In this document: positions 5,267 to 19,108 of the stretch, piece by piece
How the letters are laid out: each line of letters starts with the position of its first letter
Position numbering within the stretch: position 1 is the first letter of the stretch
Assembly (NCBI GenBank): GCA_003598025.1
Contig: QZKH01000003.1
Span: forward strand, 170,048 to 234,047
Length of the DNA stretch: 64,000 nucleotides
Direction of reading: 5' to 3'
Source: Candidatus Omnitrophota bacterium
GTDB lineage: Bacteria > Omnitrophota > Gorgyraeia > Gygaellales > Profunditerraquicolaceae
The notes under the pieces: generated by a model
The model's database searches: none
Seen by the model: the letters and a program-made list of their open reading frames with translations, nothing else
What the model was told of the DNA's origin: nothing
Position numbers and translations under genes: made by a program

Positions 5267-6621
5267 TCCTCCGAGGCCTCATCTTTTAACAGGTCCTGTA
5301 CAAAATGCGTAGAAGTCTCACCTTTGACAAAAAGCGGATTATCCAGAAGCTGTCTATGGAAAGGAATAGTAGTCTTAATTGGTGAAACCGTAAATTCACT
5401 TAAGGCCCTTTGCATTGTTTTAATCGCTTCCTGCCTGTTAATGCCGAAAGTAATAACTTTTGCGACCAAAGAGTCATAATAAGGAGAGATTTTATAACCA
5501 GGATAAATATGCGTATCTACCCTTACACCGGGCCCGCCGGGCAGAATAAGTGTCTCGATTTTACCGGGACAGGGCAGGAAATTATTTTCATAGTCTTCGG
5601 CATTTATCCTACATTCAATGGCAGCCCCTTTTACCTGGACGTCTTCCTGCTGGATATTGAGCTTTTCACCGGATGCGATCTTTATCTGCTGTTTTATAAG
5701 ATCAATACCCGTTACCAGCTCTGTTACCGGATGCTCGACTTGAATGCGTGTATTCATTTCCATGAAGTAAAAATTCTGGTTGCTGTCTACGAGAAATTCT
5801 ATCGTCCCTGCGCTGGAGTAATTAGCGCTTTTAGCGCCTTTAACCGCTAATTCACCAAGCCTCTTGCGTAATTTATTATTTATGGCCGGGGATGGCGACT
5901 CTTCCAGGAGTTTTTGGTGCCTTCTTTGTATGCTGCAGTCCCTTTCTCCGAGGTGGATTACCCTGCCGTATTTATCCGCTAATATCTGTATCTCCACATG
6001 GCGCGGGTTTTTTATGTATTTTTCGATGTAAACCGCCGGATTGCCGAAATTTGCCTCAGCTTCCTGCTGGGCAACCATAAAACTGCTGATAAGCTTAATA
6101 TCATTATGGCATATACGCATGCCTTTGCCGCCGCCGCCGGCGGAAGCTTTTATGATGACAGGGTAGCCTATTCTTTTTGCAATTTTTAGGGCTTCTTCTT
6201 TTGTTTTTACTACGGAGGTGCTTCCGGGCACTATCGGGACATTTGCTTTTTCCATTAACAGCCGGGCATTCATTTTATCTCCCATCATACGTATGCTTTC
6301 CGGAGATGGCCCGATGAAAGTTATCTGGCATGATTCGCAGATCTCTGCAAAATGTGCATTCTCAGCTAAAAACCCATATCCTGGGTGGATAGCTTCTACA
6401 TCCGTGATTTCAGCTGCGCTTATTATGGCGGGAATATTAAGATAGCTGTTAATACTTTGAGCTTGCCCTATACATATGGCTTCGTCAGCAAAACGAACGT
6501 GCAGGGATTCCCGGTCAGCTTCTGAATATACAGCTACAGTGCGTATGCCCAGTTCTTTAGCTGCCCTTATAATCCTTAAGGCTATTTCGCCGCGATTGGC
6601 TATTAATATTTTTGAAAACAT
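5263..6621 (-). CDS. accC: Acetyl-CoA carboxylase, biotin carboxylase subunit
   Basis: 452 aa; [20 protein letters not shown]...; ATP-grasp motifs; start overlaps the Asp23 stop by 4 nt. Confidence 0.9.
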
Positions 6622-6658: not shown

Positions 6659-7111
6659 TTATACCGCTTCTATCAAAAACATCGGCTGTCCAAACTCAAC
6701 CGGCTCAGCATTATCTGCAAGTATTTCTATGATTTTTCCTTTTATCTCGGATTTTATTTCATTCATAAGTTTCATAGCTTCAATTATACAAATAACCTGC
6801 CCCGGCTCTATGACCTGTCCGACCTCAACATAAGGAGGGGCTTCCGGTGATGGTGCCCTGTAGAATGTGCCAACCATGGGTGCTTTTATTTCGATGGAGT
6901 TAGGGTTTTCCTTCTCCGTTATTTCCGAAACAGCCTTTGCGGCAGGCTGTACAATCCTTTCTTTCTCAATCAGTATCTGGGATTGCATATTTTCTCCTGC
7001 GGGAGAACTCTTTTTGAGCCTTATGCGCATCCCGTCTTTTTCAATCTCCATCTCCATCAGGGAATTCTCATTCATCAGGTTAATCATTTCTTTAATCTCT
7101 TTTATATTCAT
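6659..7111 (-). CDS. accB: Biotin carboxyl carrier protein
   Basis: 150 aa; C-terminal biotinyl domain with the EAMKLMNEI motif (biotinyl lysine). Confidence 0.85.
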
Positions 7112-7141
7112 CAGTTACCCCTTTTTTATGCTTTTCGAATC

Positions 7142-7702
7142 CTATGCCCTCTCTATGTATTCTCCGGTCCGGGTATCTACCCTGATTACATCCCCGGGAT
7201 TAACAAAGAGAGGTACTTGTATAGTTGCTCCAGTCTCAATCGTAGCAGGTTTTGTCCCGCTTTTGGCTGTATCTCCTTTGATGCCCGGTTCAGTGTGAGT
7301 CACTAAGAAATTAATAAAAAAAGGAAGAATTATATTGAGAACCTCTCCTTCATAAAAAGAGGCGTTTAATTCGCTGTTTTCTTTAAGGAATTTCTTTTTT
7401 TGCCCGACGACTTCCTCAGATATGGCTATGTCTTCAAAATTTTCCTGGTCCATAAAATGGTAAGTATTGCCTGAAGAATATAGATACTGCAGTTTTCTTT
7501 CTTCAATAAAGGCGGGGTCAATTTTTTCGTCTCCCCTGAATGTCCTCTCCTGGATCAGGTCATTTTTCAAGTTTTTTATTTTTACGCGGACAAAGGCCGC
7601 TCCCTTGCCTGGTTTTACGTGTTGGGCGTCTGTGACCAGGTAAGGTAATCCGTCTACCAGTATAGTTAAGCCTGATTTTATGTCATTTATCGATAGAGCC
7701 AC
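7142..7702 (-). CDS. efp: Elongation factor P
   Basis: 186 aa; KPGKGAAFVRVKIKNL (beta-lysylation loop KPGKG) is the EF-P signature. Confidence 0.9.
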   Translation of the reverse strand: MALSINDIKSGLTILVDGLPYLVTDAQHVKPGKGAAFVRVKIKNLKNDLIQERTFRGDEKIDPAFIEERKLQYLYSSGNTYHFMDQENFEDIAISEEVVGQKKKFLKENSELNASFYEGEVLNIILPFFINFLVTHTEPGIKGDTAKSGTKPATIETGATIQVPLFVNPGDVIRVDTRTGEYIERA

Positions 7703-8756
7703 TTAAAACCTCACATCCTTTCTTGGTAACCACAACCATGTCTTCTATTCTTATTCCGAATTTTCCGGGAAGGTATATGCCGGGTTCAATAGTAAATACC
7801 ATGCCTGGCTGCAGGCGAATTTTGTTATTGGCAGTGATGTTAGGCGCTTCGTGGACCTCTAGCCCCACTCCGTGTCCTAAGCTGTGCCCAAAAAAACCGC
7901 CATACCCATTATTGGCTATATGCTGGCGGGCTGCCTGATCTATTTCCTTTATACTGATTCCTGGCCTGACCTTCTTGATCGCTAATTCCTGAGCCTCAAG
8001 TACTATTTTATAAACCTTTCTTACAAGAGGAGTTATTTTACCCAAAAAGAAAACCCTTGTCAAGTCGCAATTATAACCTTTATATCTTGACCCTAAATCT
8101 ATCAGAAGAGGTTGATTTGCCTTGATTTTTGAACTTGAAGTAATGTGGTGCGGGTAGCTGGCGTTGCTTCCAGAAGCAACGATTATATTGAAACTCGAGC
8201 TTTCTGCGCCATGAAAACGTATAAACTGCTCTATTATACCGGATATTTCTAGCTCGGTTTTTCCGGCTTTAAGTTCCTTTGTTATGGATTTTAAGGCGTT
8301 GCCGGTTATAGCTAAGGCATCCCTTATAAGGCTAATCTCTGTCTCAGTTTTTATTATTCTTTCATTTTCTATTAACCCGGCAACTGCTTTAAGCCGGATC
8401 TCATTTTGGAATTCATTAACAAGCGATTCGTATTGTCCGTACGTTGTATAATTTTTCTCAAAACCGACTGACTTTATTTGAAGCTGGTTACAGTATTCTT
8501 TTATGCCGGGAAACAGCCTGCCTTTTATATCTATGATTTTTGCTATTCCTTTTAATGCAGCTGCCGCCTCCTGCGTGTATCTGGAATCGGTGAAATAGCA
8601 ATTTGCCTTAGCAGATGCCAGAAGCATAGAGTCCCTGCTGGGATAGCCTGTAAGGTATTCAATATTGCAGTTCGATGTCACCAAAAGAGCGCCGACTTTC
8701 TCAAATCGCAGTTTTTTGTATATATTATTTAATCTTTTGCTGCAGCTTGTTTTCAT
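7683..8756 (-). CDS. pepP: M24-family Xaa-Pro aminopeptidase (PepP-like)
   Basis: 357 aa; creatinase-N-like N-terminus and a pita-bread C-terminus with the [11 protein letters not shown] metal-binding motif. Confidence 0.75.
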
Positions 8757-9211
8757 TTAAAGAGATTGATTATGGCTTTCAGGCCCAGTATGTAGCTATG
8801 CATCCCAAAACCCATGATAGTGCCTTTGGCAACCGGGCTGATTAAGGATTTATGCCTGAAGTCTTCCCTCGCGTAAATATTAGAAAGGTGGACTTCAATC
8901 GCCGGCAGCCCACAGCCGGCGATAGCATCTCTTATTGCTACGCTGGTATGGGTATAGGCGGCAGGATTAATCAAAATTGCATTAAATTTTTGCTTGCTTT
9001 TTCCTATCAGGTCTACAATCTCGCCTTCGTGGTTAGATTGTTTTATTATCAAACCGATTTTATTTTTATCCGCTATTTTCTTAAGCTCGCTGTTTATCTT
9101 AGCCAGGGTCACCCTTCCGTAAACCTCGGGTTCTCTTTTGCCAAGCAGGTTTAAATTTGGGCCATGAATAACTAGTATTTTTTTCATAAGATTATCCTTC
9201 TGCTTCGTCAA
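8753..9211 (-). CDS. aroQ: 3-dehydroquinate dehydratase, type II
   Basis: 152 aa; [21 protein letters not shown]...[13 protein letters not shown] is the canonical type II DHQase. Confidence 0.9.
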
Positions 9212-9832: not shown

Positions 9833-10654
9833 CTAATATATAACGATTCCCGCATAACCTACGACGCTTGATTCGTCACCGCTATTTTCCGCGCTGGTGG
9901 TATAAGATATAAGTTTTGTTTTTTTCGCATTTAATAGTTTTGCCGCGGAGATCATGGTTATGGCCGGCATGTACCCGCACATACTTATACCGTATTCTTT
10001 TATGTTCTTCATCAGGCCGTTTTCATCCAACTTTAATATGGAATCAATCGCAATATTGTCTTTTTTCCGGGCAGAATCTATATCTTCGTAATGAGTGAGG
10101 TCGGAACTGGCGATTATTAATGACTTTTGCTCGGCTCCGGATGATTTAATGCATCCTGCAATGGCCTCTCCTACCTTCTTGAGCTCATTAATGTCGTCGG
10201 AAGACATAGTAATCGGTATTATTTTGAAATTTTTATTAAAAAATTGCAGTATCGGAAGCTCTACTTCAAGTGAGTGTTCGAACATGTGCGCTGATGCATC
10301 ATCGGTAAGCAGATTGCAGTTCTCTAAGAGTTTGTTTGAAATAGCATCGTCAATTTCAACGTCTCCCATAGGGGTTTTCCACGACCCCTTAGCCATTATA
10401 CTGAACGGGCTACCGTAGCCTGTATGGTTAGGGCCTAACAGGAATACAGTTTCTTTTATGTGCATACTGGCAGCAGTTAATGTTGCGACTTTCCCGGAAT
10501 AAATATAGCCTGCGTGAGGCATCAGGCATCCGATAGCTTCATAAATCTGCCCGGGAGCTGCTATAAAAGAATTAAGCTGTTTCTTTATTTCATTTGCTGA
10601 ATTCGGATAGAATTGGCCGGAGACTACCGGGTTTCTAACTATTGAGCTTACCAT
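9833..10654 (-). CDS. MEMO1-family protein (AmmeMemoRadiSam system protein B-like)
   Basis: 273 aa; the MPHAGYIYSG motif and the overall Memo-like dioxygenase-fold pattern. Confidence 0.65.
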   Translation of the reverse strand: MVSSIVRNPVVSGQFYPNSANEIKKQLNSFIAAPGQIYEAIGCLMPHAGYIYSGKVATLTAASMHIKETVFLLGPNHTGYGSPFSIMAKGSWKTPMGDVEIDDAISNKLLENCNLLTDDASAHMFEHSLEVELPILQFFNKNFKIIPITMSSDDINELKKVGEAIAGCIKSSGAEQKSLIIASSDLTHYEDIDSARKKDNIAIDSILKLDENGLMKNIKEYGISMCGYMPAITMISAAKLLNAKKTKLISYTTSAENSGDESSVVGYAGIVIY

Positions 10655-11564
10655 CTAATAAGACCTCTAAAAATTCTTTGGCATCTATAATTTCATTTTT
10701 AGTAGCCGGATAGTGAGCCTCAATCACCTTGATCGTATCATTCTTAATATAAGAAGCAATTTTCTTAAAATCAAGGTTTCCCTTGAGCGGGGCAAGGTGG
10801 TCTTTGCAACCGTTTACATCATGCAGATGAATACCTAACATCTTTGTGCCGTAAAGGTCTAAGAAGTCCATATGTTTTATGAAACCAAGGTTTTCCATGA
10901 CTTGGGCATGCCCTGTGTCGTGCCAGTAATATATATTAGACCCTTGGAATTTATCTAAAATTATCCCTACCTCTCTTAGCGAGGGTATCTCTCGTAAATA
11001 GAACCTTGTTTCAACCCCAAGCAGGATATTCCTTGATTTAGCATAAGCGTTTAATTCTTCAAGGCTCTTTAGCGCGTTGTCAAGAAAAGGTTTATGCAGG
11101 CTTTCTCTTTCTTTAATTGCTTTATCACGGAGGTCTCTATATTCTTTGGTATCCTGCATGTTGATGGAATGCAGGTTTATAAGCGACCTGGTAGAATCCT
11201 CCATATCGACCCTGCCGCAGTGAAGGACTACGGCTCTTGCGCGTATTTCGTCAGCGGCATCGATAGTAAGTTTTGTATATTTTACAGCGGAGAGCCTTTC
11301 ACTCTCGTTTGTTGAAGCAATGGAAAATACATCTGGCAGGGCGTGTTTTCTTTCAAGGATCCCTGGTATTGGGCAGTAATTATGCAGGCTGCTTACGGAG
11401 ATCCTGTCATTCCTGGTTTCTTTAAGTATGTCCTTAAAAATTGATTCTGTTAAATTGAAGCTTAGTTCAACGCGCTTAAAACCTAACTGCGTGATTTCTG
11501 AAAGGATCTTTCTTCCATTATTGTGGTGAAAGGCGTTCCACGAGGTTGATAAAACTAAGGACAT
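10635..11564 (-). CDS. Sugar phosphate isomerase/epimerase (xylose-isomerase-like TIM barrel)
   Basis: 309 aa; the pattern of His/Asp/Glu metal ligands (HDTGH..., HLHD) is typical of the AP-endonuclease-2/TIM family. Confidence 0.5.
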   Translation of the reverse strand: MSLVLSTSWNAFHHNNGRKILSEITQLGFKRVELSFNLTESIFKDILKETRNDRISVSSLHNYCPIPGILERKHALPDVFSIASTNESERLSAVKYTKLTIDAADEIRARAVVLHCGRVDMEDSTRSLINLHSINMQDTKEYRDLRDKAIKERESLHKPFLDNALKSLEELNAYAKSRNILLGVETRFYLREIPSLREVGIILDKFQGSNIYYWHDTGHAQVMENLGFIKHMDFLDLYGTKMLGIHLHDVNGCKDHLAPLKGNLDFKKIASYIKNDTIKVIEAHYPATKNEIIDAKEFLEVLLDGKLNS

Positions 11565-11728: not shown

Positions 11729-11787
11729 ACTATCATCTCCTTTTAAGCAATACTATCACTCTTTGGCTACCTTGTCAATATGTACAG

Positions 11788-11857
11788 GTCCGTTTCTCCC
11801 ACTGACCACAGAAGTGCCCCCCGGGGGCACTTCTGTGATGGCTGACAGAAACGGACC
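11788..11857. repeat. 70-bp GC-rich imperfect palindromic REP-like element (copy A), immediately downstream of tonB
   Basis: ggtccgtttctcccactgaccacagaagtgcccc-ccgg-gggcacttctgtgatggctgacagaaacggacc. The outer 11 bp and inner 13 bp of each arm pair perfectly. Its exact reverse complement (with 1 extra central G:C) recurs at 12629-12699. Confidence 0.75.
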
Positions 11858-11899
11858 TATTACTCTTAGCTTACTATGAACTATCAACTATGAACTAAT

Positions 11900-12568
11900 C
11901 TACTCTACCTCAAATGAAATAACCACATTAAACGATAACTGGGGGTAATCAAGCTCTTTCGGAAAAGGCGGGAAAGGTGATGCTTCATCAATACTATCAA
12001 GGGTGATCTTTTTTAAGTATTGAGAGGCCGATGATTTTTCCTGAATCAGGCGGGCATCGCGAAGCGTGCCGTCAGCATCAATAATAAAAGTGATCTGTGT
12101 TTCACCCGTTTCCTGGCCGTTGTAATTCTGGTAAGCGGCGCGTTTTATCCTTTCTCTTACTATTTGGTAGTAAGATATGTATGAGGGATTATCTATTTTA
12201 TTAAGGTCTATCGGAGGCAGGGATATCTTCTTTTTGACAGAGATTATATCCGGTTTTGCATATGTAGGTTTCTTGAATACCGGCTCTGTTAAGCCAGGCG
12301 TTTTGTTTCCGGGTATAAATTTATCCTTCTCGATTATAGGCTTTAGCAAGCTGCTATCAGGAGCGGCTTTAGGCGCCTTCATCTCTAAAAGTTCGCTCTT
12401 AAACAACTGCTTCTCTTTTACCTGTTTTATCTCTTTTAAGTAATTAATCTCGACTTCTTTCTCTTTTATTTTGGCAGGATTATTGTGAAAGAAATTAGCT
12501 TGAATAAAAATAGCAGAATGCAAGAATAGGGAGATTAAAAGGGCTATCTGGAATTTATCGAGTCGCAT
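11900..12568 (-). CDS. tonB: TonB-family energy transducer (C-terminal TonB domain)
   Basis: 222 aa; N-terminal membrane anchor, Pro/Lys-rich spacer, C-terminal ...GETQITFIIDADGTLRDARLIQEKSSAS...SPFPPFP typical of the TonB C-terminal domain. Confidence 0.65.
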   Translation of the reverse strand: MRLDKFQIALLISLFLHSAIFIQANFFHNNPAKIKEKEVEINYLKEIKQVKEKQLFKSELLEMKAPKAAPDSSLLKPIIEKDKFIPGNKTPGLTEPVFKKPTYAKPDIISVKKKISLPPIDLNKIDNPSYISYYQIVRERIKRAAYQNYNGQETGETQITFIIDADGTLRDARLIQEKSSASQYLKKITLDSIDEASPFPPFPKELDYPQLSFNVVISFEVE

Positions 12569-12628
12569 AATAAGAATAAAATAACACGTAGGACAGCATA
12601 ATTCAATATATTAGTTCATGGTTGCTTA

Positions 12629-12699
12629 GGTCCGTTTCTGTCAGCCATCACAGAAGTGCCCCCGGGGGGCACTTCTGTGGTCAGTGGGAGAAACGGACC
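12629..12699. repeat. REP-like palindromic element (copy B), inverted copy of 11788-11857, between the TBDR gene and tonB
   Basis: The sequence equals the reverse complement of copy A (a single central-base difference). Confidence 0.75.
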
Positions 12700-12704
12700 T
12701 GGTT

Positions 12705-14600
12705 TTAGAAGGTGATTTTCACTCCTCCCATTACTGTCCGCCCTGGTTCGGCGTAATTTTTTACTTCTTCGTAATTTTCGTCAGTAATATTATCAACCCT
12801 GAAGAACAATTCTTTGCCTGAAAAGATTTCATAGTTCAAAATAAAATCAAGCTTGGTATAGGATTTAAGCAGCCTGTTGCCTGAATCCGGCCTGTGGCCG
12901 GTATATTGAGAGATTATATTCATTTCTAATTTATCGGTAGGCTCAAAATCAACCTTAAAATACACCTTGTTTTTTGGCCTCCTTAAAAGTTCATCCCCTG
13001 TCGCTTTATCTTCAGTGTCCTGCCAGGTGTATCCGGTGACGAGCTTTAATGATTTAAAAGGCCTGTAAGAGGCGTCCGCTTCGAAACCATATATCCTTGC
13101 TTTGCCGATATTAGAGTATTGGGCTGTGGTAAATGTCGCAGGGTTATATTTTGCATCGATAAGGTTCTTAATGTGCGTCCTGAAATAAGAGAATCCAAGA
13201 TTCAATTTATCATTAAACGCCGGCTGTTCTAAACCCACTTCATAAGACTGGCTCTCTTCAGGCTGAAGATTAGGATTGCCGCCCCCAAACCACGGGTCGC
13301 TTAGAGCATGAAGCTGGTAAAGTGTCGGAGCTTTGAATGCGGTTGCCCACATGCCTTTTAACTTTGTTTTTGAGCAAAAGGTATAAGCAGAGTCGATTTT
13401 ATAGGTTTCCTTTGTTCCGAAATAGGAGTGATTATCAAATCTTAGCCCGGTATTTAACACAAATTTATCATTTAAGTTAAACGAGTTTTGAAGATAATAA
13501 CCACGGTTCCTGCTTATAACTTTAGGAAAGTGAGTTTCGGATGATCCGCCGAGGTAATCAGTATAGTAATAATAATTCCCTTTTTCCCTCTGCCAGTCAA
13601 GGCCGAAAGTTATCGTATCAAAGTCAACAGGCGTTAAGGTGTGCTGCCAGTCAATTTGCTGGTTTTCACCGAGATACCAGTCCCTAAGGTAATCATCCGG
13701 GAACATGGCATCCTTATCATTTGAATCCGTGCGGTAATTTTGCATAAATGAAAGCTGAAGTTTTTGCTTCCAGATATCCGTAATATTATTATTTATAAAT
13801 GTCGTTACCATCAACTGCCTTTCCTTGGCAAGCATATCCGGGTCGTCTTTAAGCCCGATGGAGTTATCATATTCATGTCTTGAGTCAGAGAGCCTGAAAC
13901 TTGTGCCGATAGAATTATCCTTATTTATATCGTAATCTAACCTTAAAGAAAGATTCAGGTTTTCATACGGATCGTTCTCCGAGGTATTTTTAAGGCTGGA
14001 TATGCCGTGACTTTTATAGTGCATTATGCCTGCGCTATAAGAAAAATCATTGATCCTTCCTGAAGAATCAAATGCTTCTTTTAAGGTATCATAAGTGCCG
14101 TAAGAAGCCGAAAAGCTGCTCTGTGGCTTTCCTTTACCTTTCCTGGTTATTATATTTATTACTCCTCCTATTGCGTCCGAGCCGTAAAGGGTGCTTTGCG
14201 CTCCGCGGACTATTTCTATCCTCTCAACGTTATCAAGGCTAAGGTTGGCAAAGTCAAAAGCCCCGTTTGTAGCAATCGGGTCGTACATCCTCACATTATC
14301 AATCATTATTTTTGTGTGATTTGAGTTAGTCCCCCTTAAGAATACTGAAACCGGGCCGCCGAAACTTCCGGTTTGCACTATATCTAATCCTGCGGTTTCT
14401 TTTATGAAATCTTTTATATTTGTCTGTTTGCTTTCTTCTATATCCCTGCGGGTAAATACAGTGACTGCCTGCGTTGTGCCTTTAATGCTCTGCTCGTTCC
14501 TTAAAGGCGTAACTACGATTTTATCAAGGTCAATATTATCGGCAAAACTGTTTGTGCCGAAAAAAATCAAAGCGGCTGATAAAACCAATGTTTTTTTCAT
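12705..14600 (-). CDS. btuB: TonB-dependent outer-membrane receptor, BtuB-like (cobalamin/corrinoid transporter candidate)
   Basis: 631 aa; signal peptide, TonB box DKIVVTPLRNEQ, plug and barrel motifs, C-terminal ...GGVKITF ending in Phe. Located downstream of a cobalamin riboswitch. Confidence 0.8.
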   Translation of the reverse strand: MKKTLVLSAALIFFGTNSFADNIDLDKIVVTPLRNEQSIKGTTQAVTVFTRRDIEESKQTNIKDFIKETAGLDIVQTGSFGGPVSVFLRGTNSNHTKIMIDNVRMYDPIATNGAFDFANLSLDNVERIEIVRGAQSTLYGSDAIGGVINIITRKGKGKPQSSFSASYGTYDTLKEAFDSSGRINDFSYSAGIMHYKSHGISSLKNTSENDPYENLNLSLRLDYDINKDNSIGTSFRLSDSRHEYDNSIGLKDDPDMLAKERQLMVTTFINNNITDIWKQKLQLSFMQNYRTDSNDKDAMFPDDYLRDWYLGENQQIDWQHTLTPVDFDTITFGLDWQREKGNYYYYTDYLGGSSETHFPKVISRNRGYYLQNSFNLNDKFVLNTGLRFDNHSYFGTKETYKIDSAYTFCSKTKLKGMWATAFKAPTLYQLHALSDPWFGGGNPNLQPEESQSYEVGLEQPAFNDKLNLGFSYFRTHIKNLIDAKYNPATFTTAQYSNIGKARIYGFEADASYRPFKSLKLVTGYTWQDTEDKATGDELLRRPKNKVYFKVDFEPTDKLEMNIISQYTGHRPDSGNRLLKSYTKLDFILNYEIFSGKELFFRVDNITDENYEEVKNYAEPGRTVMGGVKITF

Positions 14601-15274
14601 ACTCTTTGCTCCTTTTCTATAATCTTGTATTCCTGGATGTCCAAGAACCAGTATTCTTTAATGAACAATTTGTCTGTTTTTGTTATTTCAATGCGGTTTT
14701 TAAAATTTGGGCCGTCAAATACAAAAGAGTGAAATTCACCCATTTCCCCGCATATATCCACATCGGAAATTTTTTCTATGTCTGCAATAAACTGCTTGTC
14801 AATGACCCGGCCGATCCAATCCTTTTGCAGTTTTTTTGCCTGCGCGCTGGTAACAATGGCCTTAAAACCAAAATCAACCAGCTCATTAAGCACGCTTTTT
14901 GTATCCTGGTGCCATATGGGAGATATTACGCCTAAGTCCTGGGCCTGGCACATGTTTTGCACCCAGTCTTTTAAATCCTGCAGGTATATGTCTCCCCTGA
15001 TGATTTGTCCGACGCCATAAGACTTGAGTTCCGAAAGAGTATTTCTAAATACCTCTTCATAATTACGCTCGTTTGTTGTCTTCTGAACTAATTCAACACC
15101 CAAAGAATCAGCCTGGAGTTTAACGAGCTCAGCTTTTGCGCCATGAAAAGTGACCCGCCTGTACTCTTCCGATATAAAGTTGAATAAATAATCGACTTTA
15201 TATCCCTGCTGTTGCGCCTTAAATAATGACAGGCAGCTATCTTTGCCGCTGCTCCATGAGCAAGCAACCTTCAT
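14597..15274 (-). CDS. DUF71/COG2102 PP-loop ATP pyrophosphatase (Dph6/MJ0570-like)
   Basis: 225 aa; N-terminal MKVACSWSSGKDS PP-loop (SGGKDS-type). First gene after the cobalamin riboswitch; 4-nt overlap with the btuB start. Confidence 0.7.
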   Translation of the reverse strand: MKVACSWSSGKDSCLSLFKAQQQGYKVDYLFNFISEEYRRVTFHGAKAELVKLQADSLGVELVQKTTNERNYEEVFRNTLSELKSYGVGQIIRGDIYLQDLKDWVQNMCQAQDLGVISPIWHQDTKSVLNELVDFGFKAIVTSAQAKKLQKDWIGRVIDKQFIADIEKISDVDICGEMGEFHSFVFDGPNFKNRIEITKTDKLFIKEYWFLDIQEYKIIEKEQRV

Positions 15275-15300
15275 TGATTTGTTTCTCCTTTCCCGGACAA

Positions 15301-15342
15301 ATAAAAAACCCCCGCACTTTCTTGTGAAATCAAGAGCGGGGG
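15301..15342 (-). terminator. Intrinsic terminator forming the expression platform of the cobalamin riboswitch
   Basis: Minus-sense RNA cccccgcucuug-auuuca-caagaaagugcggggg followed by uuuuuu (the plus-strand A-run at 15303-15308). A GGAGA Shine-Dalgarno for the DUF71 gene lies just downstream and is unpaired. Confidence 0.75.
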
Positions 15343-15520
15343 TTGCACCCTATTTACTTAGCCCTTATCCGCGAGGCGTTACATTTTGATATAGGCAGGT
15401 CTTCTGACTACGGGTTTAACCTATTGGCTGCGCCTTCCCGGTATTACCAGTGGCATCTGCAGCTGTTTTACCCTTTACAGCGGCGGGACCGTGGCCGATT
15501 TTCACGGCCTTCCCTTTACC
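15343..15520 (-). promoter_or_regulatory. Cobalamin (AdoCbl) riboswitch aptamer
   Basis: Minus-sense RNA contains ...aauagguaaagggaaggccgugaaaaucggccacggucccgccgcuguaaagggu...gcagaugccacugguaauaccgggaaggcgcagcc...gucagaagaccugccua. It includes the B12-box GCCACUG, the GGGAAGGC core and the 3' GUCAGaAGACCUGCC element characteristic of RF00174. Confidence 0.8.
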
Positions 15521-15547
15521 TATTCAAAATTCCAAATTGTTACTTCT

Positions 15548-15575
15548 ATTCTATTTTTAAATTTTCTTTTGTCAA
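15548..15575 (-). promoter_or_regulatory. Candidate sigma70-type promoter for the riboswitch-btuB transcript
   Basis: Minus-sense TTGACA-N16-TAGAAT about 30 nt upstream of the aptamer. The -35 overlaps the btuD stop codon. Confidence 0.4.
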
Positions 15576-16354
15576 TATTTATTTTTTGCAACCAGCAGTA
15601 CATGCGGTTTTCCCGATATGGGGTTTTTGTTTACGATAACCAGAGTCTTATAAACATTCTCAATGTTTTGATAAGTCAATACCTCTTCGGGCTGGCCGAT
15701 CTTTGAGACCATCCCTTCATGCAGCATGACAATTTTATCGCAATACTCACTAGCAAGGTTTAAGTCATGCAAGACTATAACAACTGTTATCTTTTCATTT
15801 TTATTAAGCTGTTTAAGCAGATTGAGCATCTGGACCTGATGGCCTATATCAAGATGGGATGTTGGTTCGTCCAGGAGTAAAACTTTTGGCTTTTGGGTAA
15901 GCGCTTTGGCAATAATGACCATTTGTTTTTCACCGGCGCTTAATTCATGGATAAACCTATCTTTAAGTTTATAGGTTCCGGTAAGCTCAAGCGCCTTAGC
16001 GGCGATCTCGTAATCAGCCTTTGATTCCCATTGTGTGCGTTTTAGAAAAGGTATCCTGCCAAGCATGGCTATATCCATTACGGTAAACGAGAAATTGATA
16101 TCTATACTTTGCGGCACAAAAGCAAATTCACAGCTTAACTCGTGGGGGTTAAAGCTTAAAAGATCTTTCTCCTTATAAGTGATTTTCCCCGCTGAGGGCT
16201 GTATGTATCTGCTTATTACCCTGAGCAAAGTGGATTTACCAGAGCCGTTTGGGCCGATAATGCCGGTGAATTGGCCGTCTTCTATCTTAAGAGAAATATC
16301 ATGCAGGACATCGTTTTTGAGATAACCGGCAGTAATACCTTTTAATTCAATCAT
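15572..16354 (-). CDS. btuD: ABC transporter ATP-binding protein, BtuD/FepC family
   Basis: 260 aa; Walker A GPNGSGKST, signature LSAGEKQ, Walker B LLLDEPTSHLD. Confidence 0.8.
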   Translation of the reverse strand: MIELKGITAGYLKNDVLHDISLKIEDGQFTGIIGPNGSGKSTLLRVISRYIQPSAGKITYKEKDLLSFNPHELSCEFAFVPQSIDINFSFTVMDIAMLGRIPFLKRTQWESKADYEIAAKALELTGTYKLKDRFIHELSAGEKQMVIIAKALTQKPKVLLLDEPTSHLDIGHQVQMLNLLKQLNKNEKITVVIVLHDLNLASEYCDKIVMLHEGMVSKIGQPEEVLTYQNIENVYKTLVIVNKNPISGKPHVLLVAKNKY

Positions 16355-16356
16355 TT

Positions 16357-17316
16357 TTAGAGTGTAATTTTCTGTTTCTTCCTAAGCAATAAAATAAAAA
16401 CAGGCCCGCCGATGACCGATGTAATGACGCCAATAGGAATCTCTACCGGCGCAAGCATTACCCTGCTTATTATATCGGCAATTATTAAAAATATAGCAGA
16501 TGAAACCGCGCTTACCGGTATCAGCGTCCTGTGGTCTGAACCGAATATGAACCTGATTGCATGCGGTATGATGAGGCCGATAAAGCCGATTATGCCGCAG
16601 ACGCATACAATGCTTGCAGTCATAATCGATGCTATTATAAATAATATCTTTCTTATTGTGTTTACATTTATTCCGAGATGATGCGCCTCTTCTTCACCAA
16701 GGCTTATGGCATTTAGGTCGCGCGCAAGGTATAAAGATATAGCAATACCACAAGATACTATTACTCCGACAATATAAAGCAGTTTGAAATCAAATAGCTG
16801 CAGGCTGCCCAAAAGCCACCAGGTTATGCTATGCATACCCTCATTTGTGGAGACAGAAATAAAAAACAGCAGCAGGCTTGAAAAAATAGCACCTGTAATC
16901 ACCCCGGATAAAAGCAGCCCCTGGGAAGAGATCTTACCGTTGATTTTAGCAAGGTTATAAACAATTAGCATGGTGGTTGCTGCTCCGATAAAAGCGATTA
17001 AAGGCAGGAAAATCAGTGATACTCCAAGCAACAATCCTATTATAGCCCCCAGCCCTGCGCCGCTTGATACGCCTAGAACATAAGGCTCAGCCAGCGGGTT
17101 TCTTAATATCGCCTGGAATATTAAACCTGACACCGCTAGCCCCGAACCTGCAATAAGCGCAAGTAGTATCCTTGATAACCTTAATTTCAATATTTCAGGA
17201 TTAGCGAGCAACTGGTTAAAGCCCACTTTGACTGCCCCGTTGGTTAAGCCAAGATAGGCCGCTAATAACAGTAATGACAATAATAGGCCGATAAATATTG
17301 ATTTTTTATCTTTCAT
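16357..17316 (-). CDS. btuC: FecCD-family ABC permease (BtuC-like)
   Basis: 319 aa; polytopic membrane protein with FecCD-family pattern; tightly coupled to the flanking genes. Confidence 0.8.
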   Translation of the reverse strand: MKDKKSIFIGLLLSLLLLAAYLGLTNGAVKVGFNQLLANPEILKLRLSRILLALIAGSGLAVSGLIFQAILRNPLAEPYVLGVSSGAGLGAIIGLLLGVSLIFLPLIAFIGAATTMLIVYNLAKINGKISSQGLLLSGVITGAIFSSLLLFFISVSTNEGMHSITWWLLGSLQLFDFKLLYIVGVIVSCGIAISLYLARDLNAISLGEEEAHHLGINVNTIRKILFIIASIMTASIVCVCGIIGFIGLIIPHAIRFIFGSDHRTLIPVSAVSSAIFLIIADIISRVMLAPVEIPIGVITSVIGGPVFILLLRKKQKITL

Positions 17317-18139
17317 CGTAGAATTTACTATGAAGGAATTCCGCGCCTTCTACCATTCTTGGACCCGGGCGTAAAATCATTTCCGGGGTCATATCCATTA
17401 TGATATGGTTGTTTTTTACTGCTTTTATATTCTTCCAGCCGATCCTTTTAGAAATATCATATTTAGTATTACTGCCCGCCATATACCCTAATATTATAAA
17501 ATCAGGGTCACGGTCGATGACAACCTCTGAAGAAAACCTGGAATATGGCTTTGGGGTATCATGAGCGATATTCAAACCTCCCGCAATCCCGATCAGCTCA
17601 TCAATGATAGAGCCTTTTCCTGCTGTCATTAACGGCTCTCCCCATATCTCAACAAAGACTTTCGGTTTCTTTTCATCAGGGATGTTTTGAGTTTTTTTCC
17701 CTATGAAGTCCAGTTTTTCTTTAAGCTTATCTACAAGATTCTTTGCTTCGCTTTGTTTTCCGGTGAGCCTGCCTATCTCTATGACTGAGTTAAACAACTC
17801 TTGAAAATTTTCAGGGTCACTGACAAACACTTTGATATCCATTGCCCGTAATTTATTCACCACAGGCGCCTGCTCTAAACCCGTGGCAAAAACAATATCC
17901 GGTTTCATGGACACTATCATCTCTATGTTGGGTTCTGAAAAAGTGCCTATCTTCTTAATCTGTTTTGCCTGTTCAGGGTAATCGCACCAAATCGTATTGG
18001 CGATAATATTGTTTCCTAAACCAAGGCTGAAGAGTATTTCCGTAGTTGCCGGAGAAAGAGAGATTATCCTTATGCCTTCGGCATTGCAGAATGAAAAAAT
18101 GAACGACAATATTAATGTTAATAGGCCAAGGCGCTTCAT
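17306..18139 (-). CDS. btuF: Periplasmic cobalamin/siderophore-type substrate-binding protein (BtuF-like)
   Basis: 277 aa; signal peptide and class III SBP pattern (RIISLSPATTEILFSLG...). Confidence 0.7.
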   Translation of the reverse strand: MKRLGLLTLILSFIFSFCNAEGIRIISLSPATTEILFSLGLGNNIIANTIWCDYPEQAKQIKKIGTFSEPNIEMIVSMKPDIVFATGLEQAPVVNKLRAMDIKVFVSDPENFQELFNSVIEIGRLTGKQSEAKNLVDKLKEKLDFIGKKTQNIPDEKKPKVFVEIWGEPLMTAGKGSIIDELIGIAGGLNIAHDTPKPYSRFSSEVVIDRDPDFIILGYMAGSNTKYDISKRIGWKNIKAVKNNHIIMDMTPEMILRPGPRMVEGAEFLHSKFYDER

Positions 18140-18143
18140 TATA

Positions 18144-18647
18144 TCAGTATTCGATGCCTCTTCTTGCTTTCTTGCCTTTGCTGTAGTAGTGTTTTACTTC
18201 GCGGATTTCGCTTACTAAGTCAGCGGCTTTTATTATTTTGGGATGCGCATAGCGGCCGGTAAGGATGATTTCGCAATCTTTGGGCACGTTGTTAATACAG
18301 CTTAATACATCGGTAATGCGGATTAGCCCCAGGTTTATGGCGACGTTAATTTCATCCAGTATGATCACATCGTAGCACTTTTTATTTACAGCCTTTTTTA
18401 CGGCGTCAATCCCCTTTTTTGTAAAATCTATATCTTTCTGCGATGGCTGCCTGCACACAAAACATCTGCTGCCGAATTGCTCAACCTTGATATTTTTGTG
18501 TTTCTTTAACGCTTTAATCTCGCTGCAGGCCCTGCCTTTAAGAAATTGACAGAAGTAAACTTTTTTCCCTGCTCCGCTGGCACGTAACGCAAGCCCGAGC
18601 GCTGCCGTAGTTTTTCCTTTTCCATTTCCGGTATATACTTGTATCAT
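18144..18647 (-). CDS. btuR: Cob(I)yrinic acid a,c-diamide / corrinoid adenosyltransferase (CobO/BtuR)
   Basis: 167 aa; MIQVYTGNGKGKTTAALGLALRASGAGKKVYFCQFLKG is the classic CobA/BtuR P-loop. Confidence 0.85.
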   Translation of the reverse strand: MIQVYTGNGKGKTTAALGLALRASGAGKKVYFCQFLKGRACSEIKALKKHKNIKVEQFGSRCFVCRQPSQKDIDFTKKGIDAVKKAVNKKCYDVIILDEINVAINLGLIRITDVLSCINNVPKDCEIILTGRYAHPKIIKAADLVSEIREVKHYYSKGKKARRGIEY

Positions 18648-19108
18648 TTTGTTAAAATTTTATATCCTGATATTCCAAGCGTGCATAATATTGAGACTAT
18701 TACGCCGGCTATTAAAACCCCGGCGGCAATGGAGATAAAAGCGTATTTAAACCTTATCTTAAATAAAGATGCGGCGATTGCCCCTGTCCATGCCCCTGTC
18801 ATAGGAAGCGGCACGGCGACAAACAACATGAGGCCGATGGATTCATACTTCTGTATAAGTTCAGACTTCTTTTTTGTCCGCTCAAAGAGCCAGTCAAAGA
18901 AATTCTTCCATAACGCAAATTTACGCAATCTTGCCGATACAGGCTCTAATAGCAACAGTAGAGGTATAACAGGCAATAAGTTTCCTATTATAGATATCCA
19001 GAACACTTTAATCAGGGGAAGATTAAAAGATAGCCCTAATGGTATAGCTCCCCTTAATTCAGATACCGGCAAAGCCGCTAAAATAAGTACTTTTATTTCA
19101 TTAGTCAT
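18644..19108 (-). CDS. Small polytopic membrane protein (COG2426 / putative small multidrug-export family-like); first gene of the btuR-btuFCD unit
   Basis: 154 aa, 4 predicted transmembrane segments, ELRGAIPLG motif; 4-nt overlap with the btuR start. Family assignment is from memory only. Confidence 0.4.
   Translation of the reverse strand: MTNEIKVLILAALPVSELRGAIPLGLSFNLPLIKVFWISIIGNLLPVIPLLLLLEPVSARLRKFALWKNFFDWLFERTKKKSELIQKYESIGLMLFVAVPLPMTGAWTGAIAASLFKIRFKYAFISIAAGVLIAGVIVSILCTLGISGYKILTK

Follow-up and report, generated by a model that had tools for sequence, protein, structure and literature searches.

A putative terminating cobalamin riboswitch ahead of a DUF71-B12 gene in a corrinoid-salvage cluster of Omnitrophota

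In a 64,000-nucleotide (nt) stretch of DNA from a Candidatus Omnitrophota bacterium (the window; assembly GCA_003598025.1, contig QZKH01000003.1, positions 170,048 to 234,047), we detected on the minus strand a cobalamin riboswitch with an intrinsic terminator, directly ahead of a gene for a PP-loop ATP pyrophosphatase of the DUF71-B12 subgroup that is followed by genes for a BtuB-like receptor and a TonB-family protein. We consider it probable, at roughly 85%, that this leader is a cobalamin-responsive terminating (OFF) riboswitch with its own promoter within a corrinoid-salvage cluster, and that the operon behind it joins corrinoid uptake to ATP-dependent corrinoid processing. An earlier note on the same DNA, made from the letters, had placed the arrangement at 14597-15520, a span too short by the 18 nt at the 5' end of the aptamer and by the promoter (15548-15575). 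In the order of transcription and in window coordinates, the elements are the following:

15548-15575, minus strand: sigma-70-like promoter TTGACA-16-TAGAAT, 11 of 12 consensus positions
15377-15538, minus strand: cobalamin riboswitch aptamer with P6 extension and B12 box, full-length RF00174 match
15361-15377, minus strand: small hairpin GCC-UCGCGGAUAAG-GGC with loop box CGCGGA, candidate L13 kissing-loop partner of aptamer loop L5
15299-15343, minus strand: intrinsic terminator, 13-bp bulged hairpin plus UUUUUUAUUU, called on fold energy and conservation in relatives
15285-15298, minus strand: GUCCGGG box and Shine-Dalgarno sequence AGGAG (15289-15285), the latter 10 nt ahead of the ATG at 15274
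14597-15274, minus strand: DUF71-B12 PP-loop ATP pyrophosphatase (PF01902), 225 amino acids (aa), no signal peptide
12705-14600, minus strand: BtuB-like TonB-dependent outer-membrane receptor, 631 aa, Plug and beta-barrel domains
11900-12568, minus strand: TonB-family protein, 222 aa (TonB_2, 29 bits; TIGR01352, 27.4 bits)

Results and discussion

The cobalamin riboswitch and its terminator

The RNA family of the leader is that of the cobalamin riboswitches. Scanning with cmscan (Rfam 15) returned RF00174 at 15377-15538 of the minus strand with 97.3 bits (E 5e-23, gathering score 31.5), a full-length match covering model positions 1-189 and the sole Rfam match in the whole window. The riboswitch proposed in the earlier note thus passed the covariance-model check, and the aptamer motifs quoted there can all be read in the sequence. 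The B12 box GCCACUG (GCCACTG in the DNA) was read directly from the letters at 15454-15448, GGGAAGGC occurs twice in the aptamer region, and the motif at 15407-15393 reads GTCAGAAGACCTGCC / GUCAGAAGACCUGCC; the conserved core of RF00174, comprising the B12 box and the GGGAA / AGACCUGCC elements, was found both in the letters and in the cmscan alignment. As a riboswitch, the element is an ordinary member of RF00174 that uses a terminator as its platform, and its ligand would be adenosylcobalamin (AdoCbl) or another cobalamin.

The terminator hairpin ACCCCCGCUCUUGAUUUCACAAGAAAGUGCGGGGGU lies at 15343-15308, 34 nt past the aptamer, with a fold energy of -19.8 to -21.3 kcal/mol, and is directly followed by UUUUUUAUUU (U6AUUU, containing the U6 tract). 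A simple consensus scanner overlooked this hairpin because its stem is bulged. For comparison we used the leaders of related Omnitrophota contigs, which encode proteins 55-66% identical to the DUF71 protein of the window. In all nine related leaders a hairpin of -15 to -22 kcal/mol precedes a tract of six or seven U, and the inner stem sequences of these hairpins are unrelated to each other. The persistence of the structure while the stem sequence differs is good comparative evidence that the predicted terminator is functional, in line with the intact rho-independent terminator that the earlier note had claimed.

Two further short boxes are conserved in these leaders. The loop box of the small hairpin, CGCGGA, is complementary to aptamer loop L5 (GUCCCGC), and a CGYGGA box occurs inside a small hairpin in all nine related leaders, with stems that vary between lineages (CUGG/CCAG, UUUGGC/GCCAAA, CUGGCC/GGCUGG, UUGGUU/AACCAA, CUGGC/GCCAG, GCC/GGC and ACC/GGU). 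These stems were listed by eye, the MAFFT alignment being out of structural register between the groups with long and short stems. In each of the eight leaders with an aptamer that extends over L5, this loop is GUCCCGC (the ninth, L081, is cut off 5' of L5), so that L5 and the CGCGGAC loop are both near-invariant and vary too little to show covariation; their kissing interaction (L5-L13) is a candidate one. The second box, GUCCG, stands just 5' of the Shine-Dalgarno sequence in eight of the nine related leaders and is complementary to the same conserved CGCGGAC loop that is itself complementary to L5. The pair may form a dual transcriptional and translational platform, any part of the GUCCG box in translation control being a predicted one. 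Besides, an AGGG-N4-5-CCC box common to the nine leaders overlaps the 5' arm of the terminator.

Compared with the btuB leader of E. coli and Salmonella, the window leader belongs to the same RF00174 family, has the same B12 box and P6 extension, and likewise stands ahead of an outer-membrane B12 receptor gene. It differs in that its platform is an intrinsic terminator, that the first gene behind it encodes the DUF71-B12 protein with btuB second and overlapping, and that the switch lies directly downstream of btuD inside a larger cluster.

Proposed mechanism and polarity of the switch

When AdoCbl is plentiful, the aptamer would bind it and the terminator at 15343-15299 would form, so that RNA polymerase coming from the local promoter, or reading through from btuD, would be halted ahead of the DUF71 gene. 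Under B12 scarcity it would continue and BtuB, TonB and the cytoplasmic DUF71-B12 enzyme would be made together, the inner-membrane importer BtuFCD and the adenosyltransferase encoded upstream remaining outside the control of the switch. The CGCGGA loop could plausibly kiss L5 in the B12-bound state or help to occupy the C-run of the terminator 5' arm in the B12-free state, and the GUCCG box next to the Shine-Dalgarno sequence, complementary to this loop, hints at an added translational layer.

OFF logic appears the most likely one because of the behaviour of the riboswitch family and the conserved terminator: where cobalamin riboswitches precede uptake genes, they usually act as OFF switches. 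Two observations weigh against this polarity. There is no thermodynamically evident antiterminator in the leader, the minimum-free-energy fold of which always contains the terminator, and the best antiterminator candidate, GCGG-AUAA-GGG (15371-15361) pairing with CCC-CCGC (15342-15336), reaches only -6.0 kcal/mol. With no clear antiterminator, the predicted OFF polarity rests on the usual behaviour of the family, and the antiterminator pairing itself is a candidate.

It is improbable, on the same material, that the output of the switch is not mainly B12-induced termination. Such a switch could be chiefly translational, the conserved CGCGGAC loop pairing alternately with L5 or with the GUCCG box by the Shine-Dalgarno sequence, or it could be an ON switch, two GGG boxes pairing alternately with the aptamer 3' strand ACCUGCC or with the terminator C-run. 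In the minimum-free-energy folds the GGG boxes do pair with ACCUGCC, as the CGCGGA box does with the GUCCG box, and the conservation of the GUCCG box and the lack of a strong antiterminator also speak for this explanation. On the other hand, the GUCCG box comes behind the U tract in the transcript and is therefore unable to influence the termination decision, and a strong terminator kept in all nine leaders argues for termination as the main output, as does the OFF behaviour of the family ahead of uptake genes.

The gene behind the riboswitch belongs to the DUF71-B12 subgroup

The open reading frame at 14597-15274 starts with MKVACSWSSGKDS, its ATG being at 15274. Its 225-aa product matches PF01902 with 188 bits (gathering threshold 23.2) and carries the PP-loop as S8-S-G-K-D-S13 (family motif SGGKDS), and thus the DUF71/COG2102 PP-loop ATPase that the earlier note had seen directly behind the riboswitch, with its SSGKDS loop, was recovered. 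Within PF01902, a DUF71-B12 subgroup has been defined by the motif ENGEF/YH, which replaces the motif EGGE/DxE188 of the diphthine-ammonia ligase Dph6, and 75 of 102 of its genes were found clustered with btuCDF (de Crecy-Lagard et al. 2012, Biol Direct 7:32, PMC3541065).

The window protein belongs to this subgroup and not to Dph6, an assignment made because it has His182 in place of Glu188, scores below the cut-off of the Dph6 family model, and has homologues in B12 gene contexts. Its motif CGEMGEFHS aligns with AGEGGEFET of the Dph6 proteins PF0828 and PH1257, which puts His182 at the position of the catalytic Glu188 of Dph6; this residue is His in 199 of 200 DUF71-B12 homologues and Glu in PF0828 and PH1257. 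TIGR03679, the Dph6 equivalog and the best NCBIfam match, scores 156.4 against a cut-off of 197.3. Whether the protein would group with the B12-linked bacterial proteins or with Dph6 had been set beforehand as a test, and the three lines of evidence place it with the former. It shares with the published subgroup the substitution of His for Glu188 (E-x-G-E-F-H), the clustering with btuFCD, btuB and cobA, the PP-loop and the PF0828-like fold, and differs from it in reading EMGEFH where the published motif is ENGEFH. The differing position, 178, is Asn in 132 of the 200 homologues and varies in the other 68 (Gly in the two Pyrococcus Dph6 structures), so that a Met there is within the range of the subgroup.

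Two other residues separate the subgroup from Dph6: Cys175, seven residues ahead of His182, is Cys in 197 of the 200 homologues, and Asp95 is Asp in 199, both being Ala in PF0828 and PH1257. Since Cys14 and His182 were part of the search patterns by which the 80 loci of the survey described below were found, their conservation there is partly biased, which weakens the case that they make; the conservation of Cys175 and Asp95, neither of which was in the patterns, is unbiased. The residues of the ATP site of the PP-loop fold are all intact. An AlphaFold2 (AF2) model of the protein (predicted local distance difference test, pLDDT, 93.6) superimposes on the Dph6 structures 2D13, 3RJZ, 3RK0 and 3RK1 with template-modelling (TM) scores of 0.83-0.92 and root-mean-square deviations of 1.7-2.9 Å; the PDB holds no structure of the B12 subgroup.

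The public databases say otherwise: an NCBI entry 100% identical to the window protein, from a 567-kb contig of a 'Candidatus Omnitrophota bacterium' metagenome-assembled genome (MAG), is named diphthine--ammonia ligase. Were the protein a true Dph6, its place behind the riboswitch would be incidental. Besides the name, the choice of TIGR03679 as best NCBIfam match and the fold common to PF0828 (3RJZ, 3RK0, 3RK1) and PH1257 (2D13) would fit, as would 28-31% identity and the shared PP-loop, His44 and E-x-G-E. This explanation is nevertheless effectively refuted by the score below the equivalog cut-off, by the replacement of the catalytic residue (in full, His for Glu188, Cys for Ala181, Cys for Asn18 and Asp95 for Ala), by the association with B12 genes across many phyla and by the host itself, as bacteria use EF-G and are without diphthamide (PMC3541065). 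The name therefore looks like a misannotation of the window protein, and one that is systematic across bacterial homologues; both NCBI and JGI label the window protein and many bacterial homologues 'diphthine--ammonia ligase'.

The corrinoid-salvage cluster around the switch

Directly upstream of the riboswitch, and on the same strand, lie genes that the earlier note did not mention:

18644-19108, minus strand: PF06695 membrane protein, 5' of cobA
18144-18647, minus strand: cobA/btuR, corrinoid adenosyltransferase (PF02572, 208 bits; NF004637, 191.7 bits, above its cut-off of 185)
17306-18139, minus strand: btuF (Peripla_BP_2/BtuF match)
16357-17316, minus strand: btuC (FecCD/BtuC match)
15572-16354, minus strand: btuD (ABC_tran match)

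Together btuF, btuC and btuD encode a corrinoid-type ATP-binding cassette (ABC) importer, and the five genes are tightly packed, with gaps of at most 4 nt. The Rfam scan of the window gave no second riboswitch upstream of btuF or cobA, and the 109-nt gap ahead of the PF06695 gene holds a small hairpin only. No terminator was found between btuD and the aptamer. The minus-strand order is thus PF06695-cobA-btuF-btuC-btuD, promoter-aptamer-terminator, DUF71-B12, btuB, hairpin and tonB, and the position of cobA-btuFCD directly upstream, without a riboswitch of its own, means that the switch sits within a corrinoid-salvage cluster. The leader promoter, predicted to be active from its consensus, contains the btuD stop codon in its -35 box; a TTGACA box overlapping the btuD stop is also present in the related loci L088 and L090. 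Downstream, tonB is followed by rpsU, which has its own promoter, so that the regulated unit is DUF71-btuB-(hairpin)-tonB.

The DUF71 stop codon TGA and the btuB-like ATG overlap by 4 nt in ATGA, as the earlier note had described, and the adjacency of DUF71 and btuB recurs in relatives. The best family of the 12705-14600 product is TIGR01779 (TonB-B12). The third gene, tonB, starts after a spacer of 136 nt, and its position behind btuB is also kept in relatives. Several observations weigh against the assignment of the unit to B12 uptake and processing. The BtuB-like protein remains below the equivalog cut-offs (TIGR01779, 345 bits against 599.7; NF007926, 260 against 836), and its specificity for B12 is inferred because it is under riboswitch control. 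Similarly, the TonB protein is below its equivalog cut-off, with weak TonB_C matches of 27-29 bits, and cobS, cobT, cobU and cbiB are not in the cluster.

As btuB is the classic target of cobalamin riboswitches and the DUF71 gene of the window has no neighbouring biosynthetic partner, it could be argued that regulation is really aimed at btuB and that the DUF71 gene is a passenger without a role in corrinoid metabolism. We regard this as very unlikely, since DUF71-B12 genes are tied to B12 genes also in loci lacking btuB, including archaeal and Dehalococcoidia ones, and since in the Bacteroidota loci L047 and L061-L063 the riboswitch lies directly ahead of DUF71, followed by btuF.

Conservation of the arrangement in Omnitrophota

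The layout riboswitch-terminator-DUF71-btuB is the same in eight related Omnitrophota contigs, with RF00174 directly upstream of DUF71-btuB in L002, L081, L083, L084/85, L087, L088, L089 and L090. Those of L088 and L090 match the window exactly, btuFCD being followed by the riboswitch. The shared block reads PCMT-PF06695-cobA-(btuFCD or DUF6580)-leader-DUF71-btuB-tonB-rpsU-TIM barrel-Memo-DUF1844-Trm112-aroQ. In L001 and L086 the riboswitch is ahead of btuF instead. A truncated cobalamin-like element without the P6/B12-box extension was seen at 5772-5912 of L001 (23.3 bits against the threshold of 31.5, E 0.012), and an equivalent one in the btuD-DUF71 gap of L086 (~5820-5990). Both occupy the btuD-DUF71 gap, which is the slot of the full riboswitch in the window, and both are followed by a terminator; with the full RF00174 ahead of btuF, L001 and L086 may thus be controlled at two points in tandem.

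In the slot between cobA (or PCMT) and the leader, btuFCD and a single DUF6580 (PF20221) membrane protein of ~168 aa replace each other. The DUF6580 genes, at the slot that btuFCD fills at 15572-18139 of the window, are:

L002, 5189-5689: DUF6580 protein
L084, 5210-5716: DUF6580 protein
L087, 2164-2673: DUF6580 protein
L089, 2206-2712: DUF6580 protein

The protein has no NCBIfam match, and its displacement of btuFCD suggests that it could be an inner-membrane corrinoid importer.

DUF71-B12 loci in other phyla

Riboswitch control of the DUF71-B12 family is common and not peculiar to the window. In a survey of 80 loci, with one genome per species, the family was present in Omnitrophota, Planctomycetota, Verrucomicrobiota, Bacteroidota, Nitrospirota, Chloroflexota/Dehalococcoidia, Atribacterota, Acidobacteriota, Bathyarchaeia and ANME-1, and matches to BtuB, BtuC, BtuF or CobA of at least 100 bits occurred in 35 of the 80 loci. 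Of the 58 diverse DUF71-B12 loci scanned, 20 have RF00174 upstream in the same orientation, and it stands directly ahead of DUF71 in L002, L018 (with a borderline score), L047, L061, L062 and L063; the riboswitch-DUF71 layout recurs in Bacteroidota and Verrucomicrobiota. The earlier note had called the locus a clean natural example linking the family to corrinoid uptake under riboswitch control. The link stands, and by the survey the locus is a typical case and not a special one.

Among the 184 neighbours on the same strand, up to three genes away from DUF71-B12, the Pfam families met most often were the following:

CobT (DBI_PRT): 16 of 184
CobS: 16 of 184
CobU: 9 of 184
Asn_synthase: 7 of 184
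His_Phos_1 (CobC-type): 6 of 184
CbiB: 4 of 184
CobQ: 4 of 184

In seven Bathyarchaeia loci (L033, L039, L053, L054, L068, L069 and L071; ~6680-9170 in each), DUF71-B12 is followed by a conserved trio of genes for proteins of ~366, 250 and 205 aa, the first of which has a weak DBI_PRT match in L039. Matches to the Asn_synthase family occur in seven neighbours of this batch.

Possible reactions of the DUF71-B12 enzyme

The enzyme would use ATP to process an imported corrinoid. As all ATP-site residues are kept, chemistry in which ATP is converted to AMP and pyrophosphate (PPi) on a carboxylate or carbonyl group would be expected, and gene context and riboswitch regulation point to a corrinoid as the substrate; the substrate-side residues differ from those of Dph6 and are conserved within the subgroup. 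We lean, tentatively, towards a reaction in which the enzyme adenylates a side-chain carboxylate of the corrinoid to form or re-form an amide. The point against any such assignment is that the literature searched holds no experimental support for the reaction. The statement of the earlier note that the activity had not been shown biochemically agrees with our literature searches, which found no biochemical study of the subgroup after 2012. The note had also cited a predicted role in B12 salvage, as an amide ligase/amidotransferase-type step on incomplete corrinoids. The link to B12 is indeed published, and the role proposed there is a CbiZ-like one in pseudo-B12 salvage, not specifically the amide-ligase step (PMC3541065).

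As a functional analogue of bacterial CbiZ, DUF71-B12 would strip the nucleotide loop or wrong lower ligand from pseudo-B12-type cobamides to give cobyric acid, which would then be rebuilt. We rate this as somewhat less likely than amide formation. It has in its favour that DUF71-B12 is strictly anti-correlated with bacterial CbiZ and co-occurs with CbiB (PMC3541065), that loop-assembly genes are abundant among the neighbours in our survey (the CobT, CobS and CobU counts above), and that the near-invariant Cys175 and His182 could serve as an amidase-type dyad. Amide hydrolysis, however, needs no ATP, yet all ATP-site residues are conserved; CbiB, which a CbiZ-like route requires, is a neighbour in only four of the 184 cases, and the Omnitrophota cluster of the window has zero loop-assembly genes. 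What DUF71-B12 is proposed to share with CbiZ, the amidohydrolase of adenosylcobinamide and pseudo-B12, is its place in corrinoid salvage and remodelling; the two proteins are unrelated in sequence, fold and chemistry, CbiZ needs no ATP, and the equivalence is putative. The present evidence does not decide between amide formation and a CbiZ-like role, and the remaining probability goes to some other step.

A more speculative proposal, which we hold to be possible at best and rather doubtful, is that the protein represents a new kind of ATP-dependent corrinoid-tailoring enzyme in which a Cys175/His182 pair acts together with the PP-loop, for example by capturing the adenylated carboxylate as a thioester or by coordinating cobalt. 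If so, bacteria without CbiZ would gain a way to repair or remodel imported cobamides, and the enzyme would act directly on the corrinoid imported by BtuB, independently of nucleotide-loop assembly genes. That independence would follow from the minimal operon of enzyme, BtuB and TonB, parted by the riboswitch from the btuFCD-cobA genes that are not under riboswitch control.

Other features of the window

The gene for TonB is bracketed by a perfect inverted-repeat pair of 75 nt, each arm of which is an imperfect palindrome:

12627-12701, no strand assigned: 75-nt palindromic element in the btuB-tonB spacer, one arm of the pair
11785-11859, no strand assigned: second copy, just downstream of tonB, 100% complementary to 12627-12701

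No further copies were found in the window or in the fetched loci, which leaves these two. The element could be a hairpin similar to repetitive extragenic palindromes (REP) or miniature inverted-repeat transposable elements (MITE) that attenuates or stabilises the transcript, or it could delimit a tonB cassette that is invertible or mobile. Unrelated long palindromes occupy the same btuB-tonB spacer in L084, L088 and L090, and none is present in L081, L083, L087 and L089.

The overlapping pair of PF06695 ('small multidrug export') and cobA genes is kept in the window and in L001, L002, L048, L084, L085 and L087, which hints that the PF06695 family could be corrinoid-related in these lineages. 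An AP_endonuc_2 gene (10635-11564), encoding a protein with a xylose-isomerase-like triosephosphate isomerase (TIM) barrel, has a weak match to CbiR (21 bits against a cut-off of 105). We considered it as a CbiR-like cobamide-remodelling phosphodiesterase and rejected it: it lies within the conserved housekeeping block rpsU-TIM-Memo-DUF1844-Trm112-aroQ, the Memo gene of which is AmmeMemoRadiSam B, and it is missing from all 80 DUF71-B12 loci, so that a connection with B12 is improbable. Housekeeping genes (ribosomal proteins, rpoA, tricarboxylic acid (TCA)-type enzymes, accBC, efp and a two-component system) make up the remainder of the window, in which there is no B12-dependent enzyme or cob gene.

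Implications for the DUF71-B12 family

The class of the riboswitch and the B12 link of the DUF71 subgroup, published in 2012, were already known. Omnitrophota are known mainly from MAGs published after that study. What we add is the explicit riboswitch control of the DUF71-B12 family, the conserved Omnitrophota operon, the variable position of the riboswitch among sister lineages, the conserved internal promoter, and two residues that hardly ever vary, Cys175 and Asp95. Neither 'riboswitch' nor 'regulat' appears in the main text of the 2012 paper (PMC3541065). The locus is a clean but ordinary example, which gives supporting evidence on an open annotation problem, would not surprise a specialist and is not uniquely enabling. 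Alone it does not reveal the chemistry of the enzyme; for experiments, cultured carriers of this layout, Algoriphagus winogradskyi DSM 15360 (L060) among them, would offer better entry points.

Overall, DUF71-B12 proteins occur widely, and their link with corrinoid uptake is a consistent one. Considering that a B12 riboswitch lies directly ahead of the gene and that this layout is conserved in an Omnitrophota clade, the locus provides regulatory evidence that would place the enzyme in the response to B12 starvation.

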